Part shown: positions 29,276 to 37,122 of the stretch, one piece after another | Position numbering within the stretch: the stretch's first letter is position 1 | How the letters are laid out: every line of letters starts with the position of its first letter | Source of the DNA: Armatimonadota bacterium | GTDB taxonomy: Bacteria; Armatimonadota; Armatimonadia; Armatimonadales; Armatimonadaceae | Assembly (NCBI GenBank): GCA_043754515.1 | Contig: JAYUUO010000150.1 | Coordinates: 32,001-96,000, forward strand | Direction: 5' to 3' | Length of the DNA: 64,000 bases | The notes under the pieces: model-generated | Told to the model about the DNA's origin: nothing | The model's database searches: none | Seen by the model: only the letters and a program-made list of their open reading frames with translations | Position numbers and translations under genes: made by a program

Positions 29276-30772
29276 CTAGCCGTAGATCGCCCGGAACTTA
29301 GTGTTCAGATAGCGCAGGTACGAGCGCGACTGCGCGGGTTCCCCGCAGACCCGCTCGACCAGTTCGGCGGGGAAGTAGCGGCGGCCCGGCGCGTGGACGT
29401 TCTCGCGGAGCCAGAGGAGGAGCGAGTCGAACTCGCCCCGCTCCAGGTCGGTCGCGATGTTCGGGTGATCACCGGTCGCCTTATCGTACAGTTGCGACGA
29501 GAGCATAGTACCCAGCGCGTAGGTCGGGAAGTAGCCGAACAGAGCCGCCGACCAGTGGACGTCCTGCAAACAGCCGTTCGCGTCCGAATCCGGCGCGATC
29601 CCGAGATACTCCTCCATCAGTGTGTTCCACGCGCCGGGAACGTCCTTAACCGCGAGTTCCCCCGCGACCATCCGCTTCTCGATCTCGAAGCGTAGCATGA
29701 TGTGTAAACAGTAGGTAGCCTCATCCGCTTCGACCCGTATATAGGACGGCTCCACCTTGTTGATCGCGCGATAAAATGCGTCCACGGAAACGTCGTCCAG
29801 CGTGCCGGGGAACGCCTTCCGCAGGTCGCCGTAGTAGACGTCCCAGAACACGCGGGAGCGGCCAACCAAATTTTCCCAGAGCCGGGATTGTGACTCGTGG
29901 ATGCCGAGCGACGCCGGGCCGGAAAGCGGGGTGAAGTCGTCCTTCATCTGGAAGCCCTGTTCGTAGAGCGCGTGCCCGGTCTCGTGGATCGTGCCCATCA
30001 GCGCGGCGGGTAGCCAGTCGGCCTCGAAGCGTGTCGTGATGCGCACGTCATCTTTGCCGAACGAGGTGCAGAACGGGTGTACAGCCTTGTCCTGCCGCCC
30101 GCGCCTGAAGTCGAACCCCATCTTTTTGATGATCGCCTCGCCGAAGGCGAGTTGACCGGCTTCGGGGAAGCCGCGTCGGAGGGGGGAGTCGTCCTGTTGT
30201 GGGCAGCTCTTGATGTGACGTACCAACTCGACAAGTCCCGCGCGCAGTTCGCCGAAGACACGGTCTACCTCCGCCGTGGTCATCCCCGGCTCGTATTGAT
30301 CCAGCAGGGCGTCGTACGGGTGGGTGACGTAGCCCAGATAATCCGCCTTGCGCCGCGAAAGTTCGAGTAGTTTCTCCAGGGTCGGGGCGAAATGGGCGAA
30401 GTCATTTTCGGCTCGCGCCTTCACCCACACCTCATGCCCCAGCGTCTCGGCTTTGGCTAGTTCGGCGACGAGGCTGGACGGGATTTTCACGGCGAGATCG
30501 TAGTCGCGGCGCACCGCGCGGAGCGTGAGACGCTCGTCAGAGTCCGTGCCTAGGTCCCTCGCTTCCGCCTCGGCGGCGGCAAGCAGAGTGCCGGTTTCGG
30601 TCGCGGTGAATCGCTCGTGCGCAATGGTGCCTAGGACGGCGAGTTGCTCGGCCCGTTCCGCCGTGCCCCCGGTGGGCATGTAGCACTGCTGATCCCACCC
30701 GAGGACGGCGGCGGCACTGGCGATGTGGCCAATCTCTTTGCAACGGGCCATCAATTTATCGTAGTTTTCCAT
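29276..30772 (-). CDS. M32 (Taq-type) carboxypeptidase
   Basis: 'HPF', 'DVRITTR', 'HETGH', 'HESQS', 'IRVEADE', 'GCLQDVHW'. Confidence 0.95.
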   Translation of the reverse strand: MENYDKLMARCKEIGHIASAAAVLGWDQQCYMPTGGTAERAEQLAVLGTIAHERFTATETGTLLAAAEAEARDLGTDSDERLTLRAVRRDYDLAVKIPSSLVAELAKAETLGHEVWVKARAENDFAHFAPTLEKLLELSRRKADYLGYVTHPYDALLDQYEPGMTTAEVDRVFGELRAGLVELVRHIKSCPQQDDSPLRRGFPEAGQLAFGEAIIKKMGFDFRRGRQDKAVHPFCTSFGKDDVRITTRFEADWLPAALMGTIHETGHALYEQGFQMKDDFTPLSGPASLGIHESQSRLWENLVGRSRVFWDVYYGDLRKAFPGTLDDVSVDAFYRAINKVEPSYIRVEADEATYCLHIMLRFEIEKRMVAGELAVKDVPGAWNTLMEEYLGIAPDSDANGCLQDVHWSAALFGYFPTYALGTMLSSQLYDKATGDHPNIATDLERGEFDSLLLWLRENVHAPGRRYFPAELVERVCGEPAQSRSYLRYLNTKFRAIYG

Positions 30773-30986
30773 GTGGCTATGGTATCATCGGGGGGCGGAA
30801 AAAAGCGTCGCGTGTTGCCAGTTAAAGATAATCAACCGATCCGACCGATCCGAGGTTTGATAAAGAGACGATGCGGGCAATAACATCTGTAAATGCCTCG
30901 ATTAGAAGGCAACGCGCCTGACGAATCCTCTTTCCCCGTGCTTACCTACGACCGACTGTAAATGTTTAGATAAAGGATGGCAGTGC

Positions 30987-32354
30987 TTGTCAGCACCAAT
31001 CGCTCGAACTAGCGACACCGCCGACGGCGGTGGCGGTTTCATGTCCGGCGCGCCCGATAGTATCGGATCCCCCGCGCCGGGCGACATAGGCAGTGCTCTG
31101 CTAAACTGGCTCAGTGAGCCGGACGGCCCGTCCCGCTGGCGCGGTCTGTGGGGCGAATGGCGACCAGCGGATGGTGACGAGGAGGCCGTCGCGCTCGCGG
31201 CGGAGGGATCGGCACGCCACGAATTGCTCGACGTCCTGACCGCGATTACCGCCGAGTCCGACCAGCGGCTCGCCCTCGCCCTCTGGTACATCCGCGCCCG
31301 CGCCGGTTGGAACATGATGAACCTCCAAACGGGGTACGAGGCGAACGCGGGCTTCTGGAACCTCCCGGCGATCTATGGGCTGTCCGCGCTTTCTACCCTG
31401 ATCGGTTCCATCGAGCCGTTGCTCCCCACGGCGTTCCGAAACATCACGCAGGACTTATGGGCGCAAGCCACGGTGCAGGCGGTGACGCCGGAGCAGATCG
31501 CTCCCCAGGAGTCGGACGAACTCGCGACCGCGCTACCGGTCGGCACCAACTTCGGCGTGCATGGCGAGAATGACGCCCTGCGCGACCGGCTCCAGCAGTT
31601 GCGGCAACTGCTTAACGAACGCGACCGCGAACGTTCCCTGCTCGCGGCGGAGGTTGGCGCGACCGTGGTCGCCGACGCTACGGAAGCTGCCCGCCAGAAG
31701 TTGCGCCGCCTCAACAGCCGCGTTGCGGAGCAGGCCCGCGAGATCGCCCAGTTGCGCATGGAGCGCGACGAGATTGTCGGGCATCTGCCCGGACGCGAAC
31801 CGGCGACCGACGCCGCCGAGAAGATACGCGCCCTGACTCAATCGGTGCGGCAGCTCGAAGGCAGACTCGCTGTGCGGGAGTCGGACCGCCGCTCTTTCGA
31901 GAAAGAACTCGGCACCTCCAGCGCGGAGGACATACTAGCCTACGTTCAGGAGTTGCAGAGTAAGGAGGCGAAACTACGGAACCGCGTTTCCTTGCTACAA
32001 ACGAACGGACTGTTTCTGTTGCGGGAACTCGGCGGGGACGACACTGATCCCGGCGCGGTCAGCACCGACGACGGCTGGTTTTGGATGGCCTCCGAGCGGG
32101 CGCGCGCGTTGAAAGAAGCGGTGGCGGACCGCGCGGCGGATCTGGCGTGGCTCCGGGCACAGTGGGAGCGGGTGGGTCTGGAGACGGGAACCGCCGACCC
32201 CAACATCGCCGCCGACCGGATCCGCGCCCTGAACATGGAGCTACGTCGCGTGCAATCCGAAGTGGAGGAGGTGTTCGGTAAGAGTGCGTTCGACGAGTCG
32301 AACGCGTCGCCGTTGCCGCCGCTTCCCCCATCACTCTTCGGGCGCAGACCTTAA
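30987..32354 (+). CDS. uncharacterised protein: helical N-terminal domain plus long coiled coil with degenerate repeats (first gene of the PYP operon)
   Basis: 455-aa ORF, TTG start after AAAGGA (ATG 31041 is an alternative), heptad-rich, no TM helix or signal peptide. Confidence 0.75.
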   Translation: MSAPIARTSDTADGGGGFMSGAPDSIGSPAPGDIGSALLNWLSEPDGPSRWRGLWGEWRPADGDEEAVALAAEGSARHELLDVLTAITAESDQRLALALWYIRARAGWNMMNLQTGYEANAGFWNLPAIYGLSALSTLIGSIEPLLPTAFRNITQDLWAQATVQAVTPEQIAPQESDELATALPVGTNFGVHGENDALRDRLQQLRQLLNERDRERSLLAAEVGATVVADATEAARQKLRRLNSRVAEQAREIAQLRMERDEIVGHLPGREPATDAAEKIRALTQSVRQLEGRLAVRESDRRSFEKELGTSSAEDILAYVQELQSKEAKLRNRVSLLQTNGLFLLRELGGDDTDPGAVSTDDGWFWMASERARALKEAVADRAADLAWLRAQWERVGLETGTADPNIAADRIRALNMELRRVQSEVEEVFGKSAFDESNASPLPPLPPSLFGRRP

Positions 32355-32395
32355 TCGGCTCGCCTGATCTACTACCTTGAAGGGAACTAACTATC

Positions 32396-33091
32396 ATGTT
32401 CGCGGGTTTATCCGGAGCATCACGCCAGCAACAGGAACACGAGCGGAGTGTCGCCACCAAAGTGCTGGAAAGCATGGAGGGCCAACTGATCGCCGTCTAC
32501 GCCGAGAAGGAGTTGTTACACAACGAGATCGGCGTCAGCGAGGCGACGGAAATCATCGCGCTCGTGAACGCTCTCGTGGAGCGGGTGCGGCAACACGAGC
32601 CGGACTTCGACTACCAGGGCGGCGGGGACGCGGGAGGGACGGACGCCGTTGGAGAAACAGCGGAAAGCGACCTGCCGGAAGGCGTGGACGGGTTCAAGGA
32701 TCTGTCGCACCGCGTCCGCATCCTCACCGGGACTATCAACAGCATGGAGGCGCAACTGATTGACGTTTACGCGGATCGGGAATTACTCTACCGTGAGGGC
32801 GGGATCAAGCAGACGCAGGATGTGTTGACCCGGCTACGCGAGAACGAGAAGTTGCGCGCCCAGGTGTCCGTGATGGAGGATCAGGTCGCCGCCCTTTACG
32901 CACAGCGTCACGCGCTCACGCAGGGGCTAGGCAGGAGCGACGCCGGTGAAATCGTGGCTATCGTCCGCGCGATAACCGACGCGCTCGAAACCGCGCAACA
33001 CGCCGCGGCAAGGCTGGTGCCCGCCCCCCGCGAGTCGGCGGGAACGCCGCCCGACGACGTCCACGCCACAGTCGCGGACGAGGTGAACTAG
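32396..33091 (+). CDS. uncharacterised coiled-coil repeat protein (three MExQ(L/V)xx(V/L)YA repeats)
   Basis: GAAGGGA RBS, three internal repeats, stop codon 15 bp before pyp. Confidence 0.78.
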   Translation: MFAGLSGASRQQQEHERSVATKVLESMEGQLIAVYAEKELLHNEIGVSEATEIIALVNALVERVRQHEPDFDYQGGGDAGGTDAVGETAESDLPEGVDGFKDLSHRVRILTGTINSMEAQLIDVYADRELLYREGGIKQTQDVLTRLRENEKLRAQVSVMEDQVAALYAQRHALTQGLGRSDAGEIVAIVRAITDALETAQHAAARLVPAPRESAGTPPDDVHATVADEVN

Positions 33092-33106
33092 AAACGAGAA
33101 TCGCAT

Positions 33107-33544
33107 ATGTTTAACTTGAAACGAAACACGAACACCCCGATGGGGACGCTGGGCGCGACACCTGGGGTCCTCCCGGCCAATACGATGGCGCGCCTGTCGC
33201 AAATGTCGCGCGGCGAACTAGACTCCCTATCGGTTGGGGTAATTCAGGTGGACGACGCCGGGGTTATTCTGCGCTATAACAAGACGGAGAGCGAACTCGC
33301 CGGATTTCGCGCCGAGGATGTCGAGGGTAAGAACCTGTTCTTCGAACTCGCGCCCTGTATGAATAACGGCTTGGTATATGGCAAGTTCCGGTCGGGCGTT
33401 GATGCTAACAGTTTGGATCAGGAGTTGGTATACGCGCTTACCTACCGCATGCGTCCGGTGCTGACGCAGATCCGCCTGTGGCGTGACATCCAAACCACGA
33501 CCAACTGGATTTTGCTACAACGCATCGGCACGTCCAGCAAATAG
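33107..33544 (+). CDS. pyp: photoactive yellow protein (PYP) homologue
   Basis: Ungapped match by eye to Halorhodospira halophila PYP: 'LDSLSVGVIQVDDAGVILRYNKTE', 'GKNLFFELAPC', 'YGKFRSGV', 'TYRMRP'. Y42/N43/E46/C69/Y98/M100 equivalents are present. Confidence 0.88.
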   Translation: MFNLKRNTNTPMGTLGATPGVLPANTMARLSQMSRGELDSLSVGVIQVDDAGVILRYNKTESELAGFRAEDVEGKNLFFELAPCMNNGLVYGKFRSGVDANSLDQELVYALTYRMRPVLTQIRLWRDIQTTTNWILLQRIGTSSK

Positions 33545-33547
33545 CGG

Positions 33548-34753
33548 CTACCGCGTTACGAACCGCCCTGGATTCAGCGAGTCGCCCGGATCCAGGGCGG
33601 TTTTTACGCGGCGCATGAGCGGCAGGGATGCTGCCTTGGGGAACCATACGCACTCGTCTTTGCCACGGTGCCATAGCGGCGCATGAACCATCGTGTAGCC
33701 GGTGAGGGAAGAACGGGCTCGCGTGCTTATTAGCTCTATCATTCCGCTCATCGCCGCCGCGACTCCGTCACTCCACTCCGGGAAGTACGCCTGCGTGGCC
33801 CCCGTGCCATACCATGTCTCTATGACCGTGCCCACCTCGGCAAGCATCGCGGACATTGTACAGAGTGCCCCCCATTGTTCGTCTACAGGCCCGACCGCGC
33901 GGAATACCACGGCTCCATGCGGGGAATCGTGCGCAGTCAGTTCCTCAATTATGGAAACCGCATGCCGGGACGTAACGCTTGCGCGGGCTAGCCCGGCGCA
34001 CTTCTCCGCCTCCGACACGACGGCTTCGGCGAACCCGTTGAAGTGCGCGACGAAGTAGGTTCCCGTCTCGTCCCGGCGCCCGTAGAAGCGGGTGGGCGAG
34101 ACCGCGTTCAGGGTATCGCGGATGAATCCGCTGATACTGGCCGCGTTGTCATCTCCAGGACGTACCAGCACCGTGCGCTCCGCCTCCGGTAGCGGCGCGA
34201 CTTTGAATGTCGCCTCCGCGAGAACCCCGAGGGTGCCTAGCGCGCCGATGTGCAACTTAGGGATGTCGTAGCCGGTGACGTTTTTGACGACTTTGCCGCC
34301 GCCCTTGACCAGTTTTCCCTCCGCGTTTACGAACGACAGACCGATCAGCCAGTCCCGCGCGGTGCCGTAGCCGAGCCGGGACGCCGTGAATGCGTTGGCG
34401 GCGAGTACGCCGCCGACGGTCGCCTCGGCGGGGCGAGGGGGATCGAGCGGAAGAAACAGGCCGTGCGGGCGTAAGGCGTCTTGCACGGCGGCGATGGTTA
34501 CCCCCGCCTCGACTGTGATCGTTAGGTCGCCCGGCTCTATCGCGACGACGCGGTTTAGCCCGCCTGTCTCGATCAGGGTGAACGCGCCGGGGCGGGGCGG
34601 GTAGCCGTAGTCCTGCCCGGTACCGCCGCCATTCGGCACGACGCGGTGCCCCGCTTCGACAGCCTCAAAAACCGCGTCGGCTAGTTCCGCGATGGTTTGC
34701 GGCGAGGCGACGCGGGTCGGTTCCGCGCCCAGCGTCTCGGTGTAGTTCGTCAT
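33548..34753 (-). CDS. FAD-binding oxidoreductase (glycolate oxidase GlcE-like)
   Basis: 'EPGDLTITVEAG', 'ATVGG', 'GGKVVKNVTGYD', 'GTLGVL', 'DPGDSLNPGR'. Confidence 0.85.
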   Translation of the reverse strand: MTNYTETLGAEPTRVASPQTIAELADAVFEAVEAGHRVVPNGGGTGQDYGYPPRPGAFTLIETGGLNRVVAIEPGDLTITVEAGVTIAAVQDALRPHGLFLPLDPPRPAEATVGGVLAANAFTASRLGYGTARDWLIGLSFVNAEGKLVKGGGKVVKNVTGYDIPKLHIGALGTLGVLAEATFKVAPLPEAERTVLVRPGDDNAASISGFIRDTLNAVSPTRFYGRRDETGTYFVAHFNGFAEAVVSEAEKCAGLARASVTSRHAVSIIEELTAHDSPHGAVVFRAVGPVDEQWGALCTMSAMLAEVGTVIETWYGTGATQAYFPEWSDGVAAAMSGMIELISTRARSSLTGYTMVHAPLWHRGKDECVWFPKAASLPLMRRVKTALDPGDSLNPGRFVTR

Positions 34754-34807
34754 ACGGGGCATTGTGCGACGCGGCGGGGCTAAAATCCTGCTCTCGGCGC
34801 GGTCGGA

Positions 34808-35685: not shown

Positions 35686-36375
35686 CTATGGTGCCCCGGT
35701 ATCATTCATATCCACTTCTTTGCGGGGTGAATTAGAAGCGGAAGTTTTTAACGTGCGCTTGATGCTGTCGCGGGTGCGCTTCAAGCGTTGCTCCAGCCGC
35801 TTCGCGCGTTTCGTACCCAGCAAACTCCCTGCTTTTTTCGTGGTTCCGATGCCTTCCAGCCGCTCTGTAATGCCCTCGACCCGCTCGGTGAGCCGTTTGA
35901 CGACCCCGCCCCGCGTCTCGGGCGTGACTCGCCCTGGTAACTCGTCCGCGAGCCGCGCGAACCGCGAAAGCGTCTCGCTGAGTTTGGAGCCTTCCCCGGC
36001 GTGGCGCGACGCGTCGGCGATGGCGGCCCGCGCCCGGAGCGCGGCGCGTTCAAGACGCGTCGTTCGCGGAGCATCCTCCCCCGGCGCGAGCGACTCCTCC
36101 CCACCGGGCGGCGGTGGCGTGTCCGTCTCGGGAGCATGGTCGGGCGCGGTACCCCGGTTTGGGGGATCTGCCGCCGTCGCCACGGATCGCGCCACCTGCT
36201 CCGCGAGGCTCAGGGGCATCCCGGTTATGGAGACGATCTGCTCCGCCGTTGCCCGCGCGAGTTCGGCGCGGGTGGTTATCCCCGCCTCCGAAAGCAGTCG
36301 GCGGCGTACCGGCCCGAGTCCCGACACCCCGGACAGGTCGCTCGTGGTCGGCTCGTTCATAGCTGATTCGCTCAT
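35686..36375 (-). CDS. helix-hairpin-helix domain protein
   Basis: 'DLSGVSGLGPVRRRLLSEAGITTRAELARAT…ITGM' followed by a basic helical tail. Confidence 0.7.
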   Translation of the reverse strand: MSESAMNEPTTSDLSGVSGLGPVRRRLLSEAGITTRAELARATAEQIVSITGMPLSLAEQVARSVATAADPPNRGTAPDHAPETDTPPPPGGEESLAPGEDAPRTTRLERAALRARAAIADASRHAGEGSKLSETLSRFARLADELPGRVTPETRGGVVKRLTERVEGITERLEGIGTTKKAGSLLGTKRAKRLEQRLKRTRDSIKRTLKTSASNSPRKEVDMNDTGAP

Positions 36376-36509: not shown

Positions 36510-37122
36510 TCATGGCGCTTTTTTACTACCTGTCGCCGTCTCAACGTTTACTACGCGCGACGGCTTGGAGACAGTGGAGCCGGCATAGAGAATGGTCATA
36601 ATGAGAAGGGCCAGAAGGAAGCCGCACATCAGTGACTGCCATTTCTTGCTCAACTGTGCTACTCTCTCCTCTTCCCGCTTCCTTAGCCCGGTCAAGCCTC
36701 CACTGTGAGAGCAGAACGTCTATATCAGATAACTCCTCATGGAGACGGTGATCCACTTGGGGTGGCACGGGGGTCATTGCGGCAGAAGTAACGGGGGGAC
36801 GCGCGGCGGCGGTATCCGCGTGGGGTTGCCGCGCCGGGGCTGAAGGGACAGGTGGATTTATCGCGGCTTCGGAGGAGAGTGATCGCGCCGTAACTTCAAC
36901 GAACCCCTGGTCTGGCGGGGGGGCGGCGACCTGACCGCCTCGGGTAACATCATCCGGTTCACCGACCTGCGCGGCGTTCCCGAACCGTCTGAGATATTCC
37001 CTATGCTGACCGCTCGGCTCCGATGCGGGGCGTCGTCTGAACCGCCCGGTGTTCGCCCTGGAAGGTTTAGGGGTACCTCCCCCTCCGCCGTTGTTCGCGT
37101 TGTGTGAGGCAGTATTGTTCAT
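36510..37122 (-). CDS. hypothetical tail-anchored membrane protein, split by a +1 frameshift near 36688
   Basis: AGGAG RBS before ATG 37122. Removing one base from the C3 run at 36687-36689 gives …QWRLDRLRKREEERVAQLSKKW plus a TM helix. Confidence 0.5.

Follow-up and report, generated by a model that had tools for sequence, protein, structure and literature searches.

Photoactive yellow protein (PYP) serves as a model among photoreceptors, and in its chemistry light yields a partly unfolded signalling state. How single-domain PYPs relay their signal is stated to be unknown in two surveys of the family (PMC9664959 and PMC12826048; here and below, statements about cited papers refer to the accessible parts of each). 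We analysed a 64,000-nucleotide stretch of an Armatimonadota genome (the window; positions 32,001 to 96,000 of contig JAYUUO010000150.1, assembly GCA_043754515.1), in which a three-gene operon at 30987..33544 (+) encodes two proteins, A and B, followed by a PYP. Protein A begins with an unnamed helical domain, here called N, and B carries three copies of a pyp-associated helix-hairpin repeat, here called U. Judged by sequence, the sensor belongs to an already known family, and the two putative partner families are undescribed and clade-wide.

The closest described sensors are the clade B PYPs, such as those of Salinibacter ruber and Leptospira biflexa (PMC9664959), which like the window PYP are single-domain PAS proteins with Tyr42, Glu46, and Cys69. 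For clade B, that survey proposed a sensor-less chemoreceptor as the partner; here no methyl-accepting chemotaxis protein (MCP) was found in the genome, and it is the unannotated neighbours that are conserved. Data Set S3 of the same survey gives 'None' for pyp neighbours in rows for Armatimonas, Salinibacter, Longibacter, Gemmatimonas, and Leptospira. The recurring pyp partners listed in PMC12826048 are GGDEF/EAL proteins, kinases, MCP, V4R, REC, phytochrome, and BLUF, with the A and B families not named, and the Leptospira biflexa operon given there consists of pyp and a gene for a 134-aa hypothetical protein. The supplements of both surveys were searched by organism name only. PYP sequences from Armatimonadota are already in both, with Armatimonadia among the carriers in PMC12826048.

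A light-dependent partner has been described in Rhodobacter capsulatus (bioRxiv 10.1101/2021.06.01.446672), where the basic Rc-PYP (isoelectric point (pI) 9.4) and the acidic PBP encoded by the adjacent gene (pI 3.9) form a light-dependent hetero-oligomer with no enzymatic output. The charge pattern and the gene adjacency are shared here. For PBP (RCAP_rcc01067), a single protein of 142 aa, the prediction is a mixture of helices and beta-sheets, whereas the models of A and B are all-helical; this comparison is one of predicted structures. Rc-PYP signals from an ultraviolet (UV)-induced state and lacks Met100, which the window PYP keeps. We treat Rc-PBP as a working model for B, not as an established homologue. 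It is the only PYP partner in the reachable literature, and neither family is described in the reachable papers on PYP neighbours and partners, although subscription papers on pyp gene context may mention these open reading frames (ORFs).

Two further systems are relevant. The pyp-pcl-tal operons of Halorhodospira halophila (PMC12826048) join PYP with a lyase and a coenzyme A (CoA) ligase for p-coumaroyl-CoA. A lyase or CoA ligase gene occurs together with the A and B families at 48 of the best 79 of 590 related PYP loci, whereas the window operon holds the two partner families instead and its candidate enzymes are encoded on other contigs. CheA kinases have the order Hpt, dimerisation, HATPase, and CheW; N homologues near pyp replace Hpt or sit C-terminally, but N has no conserved His, and window A lacks the kinase part.

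Co-occurrence with pyp

A PYP alignment yielded 590 confirmed loci in the genome collection, and we analysed the best 79, which are those closest to one query set (G, L, P, and C labels denote genomes, loci, proteins, and contigs). By record title these loci come from at least nine phyla, although the titles of metagenome-assembled genomes may mislead; L100 (G257), for example, is titled betaproteobacterium and belongs to a class that holds the window's relatives. The U repeat lies within 6 kb of pyp in 72 of the 79 and within 1 kb in 71 (E<=0.001). The N domain lies within 6 kb in 63 and within 1 kb in 50 (all E<1e-8). At least one of the two is within 6 kb at every locus (79/79); both are present at 56, and seven have N and no repeat at E<=0.001. 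As a background control, the same profiles were run on 60,043 ORFs of the window's own genome (G000) and matched true copies only.

Starting from N, pyp was found in 20 of 30 fetched metagenome loci (11/17 after near-copies were collapsed). Where N is unlinked from pyp, it is still present elsewhere in the genome in six of seven cases tested. Across 251 genomes of the window's phylum, PYP was found in six and N in seven, with five genomes shared. Three genomes deviate: G036 has a repeat-PYP fusion and no N, G012 has an A gene next to a PYP-like gene that lacks the Cys, and G241 has N but no PYP. PYP occurs in 8 and N in 11 genomes of a class of 70. All eight PYP genomes have N, and in the other three N genomes A stands beside a PYP-like gene that is Cys-less or cut off by the contig end. 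Eighteen of 201 Myxococcota genomes carry a PYP-like gene. All 10 with a PYP of the PC[TM]NN type have U or N within 1.5 kb, as against none of 10 loci (8 genomes) with other PYP types, and N was found in 3 of the 201, each time beside pyp. This contrast between PYP types is drawn within Myxococcota.

The first-pass annotation of this DNA, made from the sequence alone, had named, as a case against its own reading, that homologues of the two genes mostly occur without pyp; the outcome favours that reading, with pyp at 20 of 30 N loci and U or N at all 79 pyp loci. Because the N-side and PYP-side counts both favour it, we regard a functional PYP-partner module formed by the A and B families with PYP as well supported. 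On these counts both families track one PYP clade, across at least nine bacterial phyla. The same annotation did not associate the lineage with studied PYPs. PYPs of this phylum are already listed in two surveys, which did not examine them by experiment, and the module is clade-wide and not peculiar to Armatimonadota.

In two low-GC loci (L056:4449-6534 and L059:16-3719), genes for an MCP, a repeat protein, PYP, and an N-repeat fusion are clustered. These clusters match the MCP-None-pyp pattern given for Leptospira in PMC9664959.

The window PYP

The PYP gene (33107..33544, +) encodes 145 aa of the PC[TM]NN...TNW group. The initial reading of this gene as a PYP with the chromophore-attachment Cys (codon TGT at 33356..33358, +) and its partners Tyr42 and Glu46 is borne out by alignment to the Halorhodospira halophila protein (Hh PYP), in which Cys84 of the window protein corresponds to Cys69, Tyr57 to Tyr42, and Glu61 to Glu46. 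Ala67, Pro68, Tyr98, and Met100 are also kept, and Ala50 is present. Six of the nine pocket residues (I31 Y42 E46 F62 V66 A67 P68 C69 F96; PMC12826048) are identical, and the three changes, F62L, V66L, and F96L, are conservative. Against solved PYPs, residues 29-140 match Ppr-PYP at E 3.3e-21 and Hh PYP at about 4e-20. The full-length protein has a pI of 8.85, which becomes 6.45 without the first 20 residues.

The TIGR02373 score of 99.8 bits is under the curated cut-off of 143. The published clade B rows inspected in PMC9664959 are also under it, so the model is narrower than the PYP family. In a FastTree phylogeny of 81 PYP domains, the window PYP groups with PYPs of Leptospiraceae, Rhodothermia including Salinibacteraceae, Gemmatimonadota, and Armatimonadota, apart from other myxobacterial PYPs; the tree printed no support values, left out the sequences of PMC9664959, and places the window PYP on a long branch. 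We assign this protein as a likely member of clade B of PMC9664959.

Protein B and the U repeat

Gene B (32396..33091, +) encodes a 231-aa acidic protein (pI 4.66). The core of the U repeat is [LM]E.QL..LY.[ED][RK]E, after which come an E[LF]G.SD turn and another helix; the Gln and Tyr of this consensus were fixed by the search pattern used. Protein B has three core motifs, at 32474..32515 (MEGQLIAVYAEKEL), 32744..32785 (MEAQLIDVYADREL), and 32873..32914 (MEDQVAALYAQRHA), all on the + strand, and A has none. Homologues carry 1 to 13 copies per protein. The repeat shared by A and B is real but weak (28% identity over 64 aa, E 2e-5), its common part being a helix-E[LF]G-helix hairpin. The two proteins are thus related, with the signature core only in B.

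An AlphaFold model of a natural N-repeat fusion (P0060) has a mean pLDDT of 90.7, with both parts confident and the repeat folded as a two-helix hairpin. The linker is loose (pTM 0.66) and there is no defined packing between N and the repeat. A complex predicted from alignments for B (residues 15-205) with PYP (residues 21-145) scored 0.21, against a mark of 0.32, with controls not folded, and we count it neither for nor against binding.

Searches of Pfam and NCBIfam with A and B returned nothing above cut-off, including profiles for kinase, GGDEF/EAL, MCP, and HTH domains, and neither protein has a strongly hydrophobic segment (maximum hydropathy score KD19 1.36 for A and 1.04 for B). Searches of Pfam, NCBIfam, and the PDB sequences with the U repeat, and likewise with N, gave only weak coiled-coil or designed-bundle matches. 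The ESM Atlas gave nothing usable. Kinship with SMC, FliJ, or PspA was rejected, the scores being far under the cut-offs. By these searches, A and B are two unnamed protein families and not generic coiled coils. The description of both as soluble coiled-coil repeat proteins in the first-pass annotation is thus right about the missing output domains, the missing hydrophobic segments, and the shared (if weak) repeat, but the first third of A is a globular helical domain. Its proposal that the repeat proteins are the output or binding scaffold of PYP agrees with the co-occurrence as far as a partner module goes; a filament, which it suggested as one form, finds no support in the short hairpin of the AlphaFold model. 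On that hairpin model, a long filament-forming coiled coil was rejected as the default reading of B.

Protein A and the N domain

Gene A (30987..32354, +) encodes 455 aa from a TTG start. Its N domain (31077..31487, +; residues 31-167) is a divergent member of an unnamed all-helical family of about 135 aa and matches the family profile at E 2.6e-25. Behind it stands a stalk (31569..32291, +; approximately residues 195-435) built from some five related hairpins that lack the QLxxLY core, with turns at residues 222, 266, 307, 347, and 399. The N family comprises 376 clusters at E<=0.001, and 62 of the best 150 are shorter than 150 aa. Its consensus is YIELKSxWxxLNT..NYQ, and Tyr, Trp, Asn, Glu, and Pro are conserved across 84 sequences. 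No column of these 84 has His above 25%, and no Hpt profile matches N; an Hpt domain, which would need a phospho-accepting His, was rejected, as was a membrane protein, since only 1 of the 84 reaches KD19 1.8.

An AlphaFold2 model of the N domain of A (pLDDT 90.5) is a six-helix bundle. The best matches in fold searches, at Z 9.3 (root-mean-square deviation (rmsd) 4.6, 119 residues aligned, a designed protein) and Z 8.3 (rmsd 4.7, 111 aligned), are in the range of generic bundles. Two N models had no Foldseek match at E<=0.001, and VIA-align gave generic bundles only. These fold searches barely covered the U repeat.

Some N homologues belong to CheA-like proteins. We scanned 76 N proteins (70 longer and 6 short). 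In 13 of them N is followed by CheW-like domains, in some cases along with HATPase or dimerisation matches, and in four N stands behind a HATPase domain. Of 24 long N ORFs adjoining pyp, seven have a CheW match and one has Hpt and HATPase. With strict patterns for the N-box and G2 motifs, the motifs were not intact in 27/27 fusions with N first, and both were kept in 5/5 with N last. We consider the N-first CheA-like proteins likely pseudokinases, and the N-last CheA-like kinases are apparently active. Genes encoding N in place of Hpt on a CheA-like protein lie next to pyp in several phyla (L014:8968-10482, L085:6431-7864, and L099:6798-8213; proteins P0065 and P0134), and CheA-like proteins with a C-terminal N include the one encoded at L141:1081-3231 and P0126, P0140, P0166, and P0167. 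Because of these fusions, N looks like an adaptor through which the PYP module is connected to chemosensory scaffolds or to kinases wherever such partners are present.

Which family may contact PYP

Among the fetched loci, U is fused to PYP in eight ORFs and N to U in eight, and there is no fusion of N to PYP. Repeat matches occur in 21 of 150 N proteins. In 5/5 re-searched Myxococcota genomes with U beside PYP, N was not found. Genomes with N-only loci have U-like ORFs elsewhere in four of five cases, two of them weak, and U looks more indispensable than N. The median pI is 8.6 for the PYP set (56/82 above 7) and 4.5 for both U and N. From the fusions, the absences of N, and the charge pattern, we infer that the repeat is the favoured candidate for the direct PYP binder.

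The chromophore Cys is kept in 104 of 109 PYP domains at loci L033-L141. Five long proteins have 3-11 repeats and end in a PYP domain, which lacks Cys69 in four (L111:1445-5032, L120:1279-5076, L128:1517-3826, and L137:1212-3584) and Tyr42 and Glu46 in the fifth (L015:6700-8229). Long degenerate PYPs of a similar kind, named 'hypothetical', appear in Data Set S3 of PMC9664959. At L012:7741-9643 the A-B-pyp order is kept although residues 69 and 46 of the PYP are Ser and Ala.

The rest of the genome

The genome containing the window is 92.7% complete. It has a second, more canonical A-B-pyp operon at the end of another contig (C287; L001:51-2737, - strand), whose PYP is 53.6% identical to the window PYP and keeps Tyr42, Glu46, and Cys69. 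Two orphan N genes, L002:4539-5669 (376 aa) and L030:3130-3945 (271 aa), have no pyp nearby; the first has orthologs in G483, G484, and G485.

Enzymes for chromophore supply are candidates only. One aromatic amino acid lyase, a candidate tyrosine ammonia lyase, is encoded at L032:3540-5276 (-). It is 55% identical to a pyp-linked lyase and has the His-Leu motif of pyp-linked lyases (for the His89 rule, see PMC8773403). A candidate p-coumarate CoA ligase at L031:6932-8332 (-), at a contig end, is 49.6% identical to a pyp-linked CoA ligase. As assembled, these genes lie on contigs C10 and C156, unlinked to either pyp operon. In related genomes, a CoA ligase and an ammonia lyase are fused in proteins of 941-974 aa encoded downstream of pyp (L011:8385-11210 and L014:10448-13372).

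Searches of this genome, at its completeness of 92.7%, turned up no member of the CheW, MCP, or flagellin families. A link to CheA therefore cannot be the output here, and we rejected a chemotaxis output for this organism.

Proposed mechanism and alternatives

We propose, with a probability of roughly 55%, that the loaded PYP senses blue light, that B binds it multivalently in one photostate, and that A joins through its stalk and passes the signal on through N. The genome's own aromatic amino acid lyase and CoA ligase would supply p-coumarate, to be attached as a thioester to Cys84, and light would bring the window PYP into a partly unfolded signalling state. The acidic amphipathic U helix may then bind the basic PYP, through the three LEAQLxxLY-type helices of B; on charge and fusions we put this contact slightly above even odds. 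Because several repeats give multivalent binding, light could bring a PYP-B oligomer together or break it up, in the way that UV acts on Rc-PYP and its acidic neighbour PBP. Protein A, likely the adaptor joining the PYP-B assembly, would display N on its hairpin stalk, and the stalk would assemble together with B. That N acts as the hand-over module, which elsewhere would sit on kinase-dead or active CheA-like proteins and carry the PYP signal to a chemosensory array, is a little short of an even call. The signal would end at a protein whose gene lies outside the operon, which is the weakest step of the proposal. On this comparative footing, A and B are likely the long-sought signalling partners of the PYPs of this clade.

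Several observations weigh against this mechanism. All support for it is comparative, from sequences and models, and the co-occurrence counts, 79/79 included, come from kin among loci and genomes that are not independent, with the 79 loci biased to the query's close relatives. The operon has no output domain, and the genome yielded none of the chemosensory families named above. N also leads a life apart from pyp: in the two orphan genes of this genome, in the 10 of 30 N-fetched loci with no nearby pyp, and in G241, where N is a stand-alone gene (L028:6177-6614) and no PYP was found. In the window itself, the N domain of A lacks several consensus residues, including the terminal FLxxP, and the PYP is a long-branch paralog. 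Five of the eight U-PYP fusions have a Cys-less PYP, and neighbours of the A and B types persist beside Cys-less PYP-like genes (G175, G012, and G489). Because the two families persist beside, or are fused to, PYPs without the Cys, the link within the module need not concern light.

The last point bears on an explanation in which the module is real and the divergent window PYP serves as a PAS subunit, structural or ligand-sensing, within an A-B-PAS complex, leaving light sensing to the operon on C287. It would account for the Cys-less or Tyr/Glu-less PYP-like genes beside A and B in related genomes, and the pocket changes F62L, V66L, and F96L and the score under the TIGR02373 cut-off (99.8 vs 143) can be read the same way. 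Yet Tyr42, Glu46, Cys69, Ala67, Pro68, Tyr98, and Met100 are all kept in the window, the G483 ortholog, which is 74% identical, shares Cys69, and the inspected clade B rows of PMC9664959 are under that cut-off too. We consider such a light-independent role improbable. Cys-less PYPs also need no chromophore loading, and repeats are fused to them, which argues against A and B as maturation or control factors that help apo-PYP take up p-coumaroyl-CoA, keep it stable, or sequester and reset the lit state. Such a role would suit the lyase or CoA ligase genes found alongside both families at 48 of the 79 best loci, the absence of a catalytic or DNA-binding domain in A or B, and their retention in a genome that yielded no chemosensory system. 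The N-CheA-like fusions point to signalling instead, other PYP types do without both families nearby, and spectra and photocycles have been measured for the PYPs of Salinibacter and Leptospira, which are single-domain proteins (PMC12826048, Table 1). A maturation role seems distinctly unlikely to us.

In a further alternative, N and not the repeat binds PYP, with the hairpins only oligomerising or spacing and N bringing PYP to CheA-like proteins or to the stalk of A. N is acidic and has a strongly conserved Y/W/N/Y patch, several phyla have it fused to CheA-like proteins whose genes adjoin pyp, seven of the 79 best loci have it with no repeat within 6 kb (E<=0.001), and in six of seven tested cases of an unlinked N the genome still encodes it. 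The fusions favour U, eight to none. N was not found in G036 or in the five Myxococcota genomes with U beside PYP, and within 1 kb of pyp the repeat is the closer neighbour (71/79 vs 50/79 of the best loci). We hold direct binding by N to be unlikely and retain the proposal that PYP is bound by the repeat of B.

Locus layout and flanking genes

The intergenic gaps are 41 bp between A and B and 15 bp between B and the PYP gene, all three ORFs are co-oriented, and their GC content at third codon positions is 0.73-0.80. A gene for an M32 carboxypeptidase (29276..30772, -) lies divergently 214 bp away, and one for a GlcE-like FAD oxidoreductase (33548..34762, -) converges at a distance of 3 bp. 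These positions agree with the layout given in the first-pass annotation. Its description of a self-contained unit holds for the flank bounds only: candidate chromophore enzymes are encoded on other contigs, and the genome also has a paralogous operon and two further N genes. Both flanks lie outside the module; a role for them was rejected, as both are absent from the paralogous operon and from other inspected loci.

Close homologues of the window proteins carry Armatimonadota names. In G483 an orthologous operon stands beside the same M32 gene (identities 67.7% for A, 60.7% for B, and 73.8% for PYP), and the context of the TTG start of A is conserved there. Promoter and terminator scans of the operon region were at chance level; the sole sigma-70-like site (30857..30886, +; 9/12) is not above chance (1 found, 0.5 expected). 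Downstream, the window encodes a helix-hairpin-helix protein with a basic helical C-terminus (35686-36375, -) and a 193-aa ORF without a family match (36541-37122, -). One ice-metagenome study is the origin of short, near-identical contigs, which are probably DNA and may come from the source sample.

Significance

Two small, soluble, unannotated families accompany one entire clade of PYPs, among them relatives of the Salinibacter and Leptospira PYPs, which are well studied. The units are compact (a repeat hairpin of about 55 aa, a 135-aa domain, and a 125-aa PYP), which makes the question of the missing partner directly testable. If light-dependent binding is true, it would mean a new photoreceptor-effector interface, a link between PYP and atypical CheA-like proteins, and a possible optogenetic pair.

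More tentatively, and with the odds somewhat against it, clade B PYPs of many phyla may share one undescribed kit, in which a multivalent acidic helix (LEAQLxxLY, in 1-13 copies and sometimes on blind PYPs) would gather lit PYP in an oligomer or condensate, and a new helical adaptor domain would connect that assembly to a pseudo-CheA, an active CheA, or a kinase-free stalk. Such a shared kit, if real, would be the general means of signal transfer for single-domain clade B PYPs and would provide a light-switchable protein pair.

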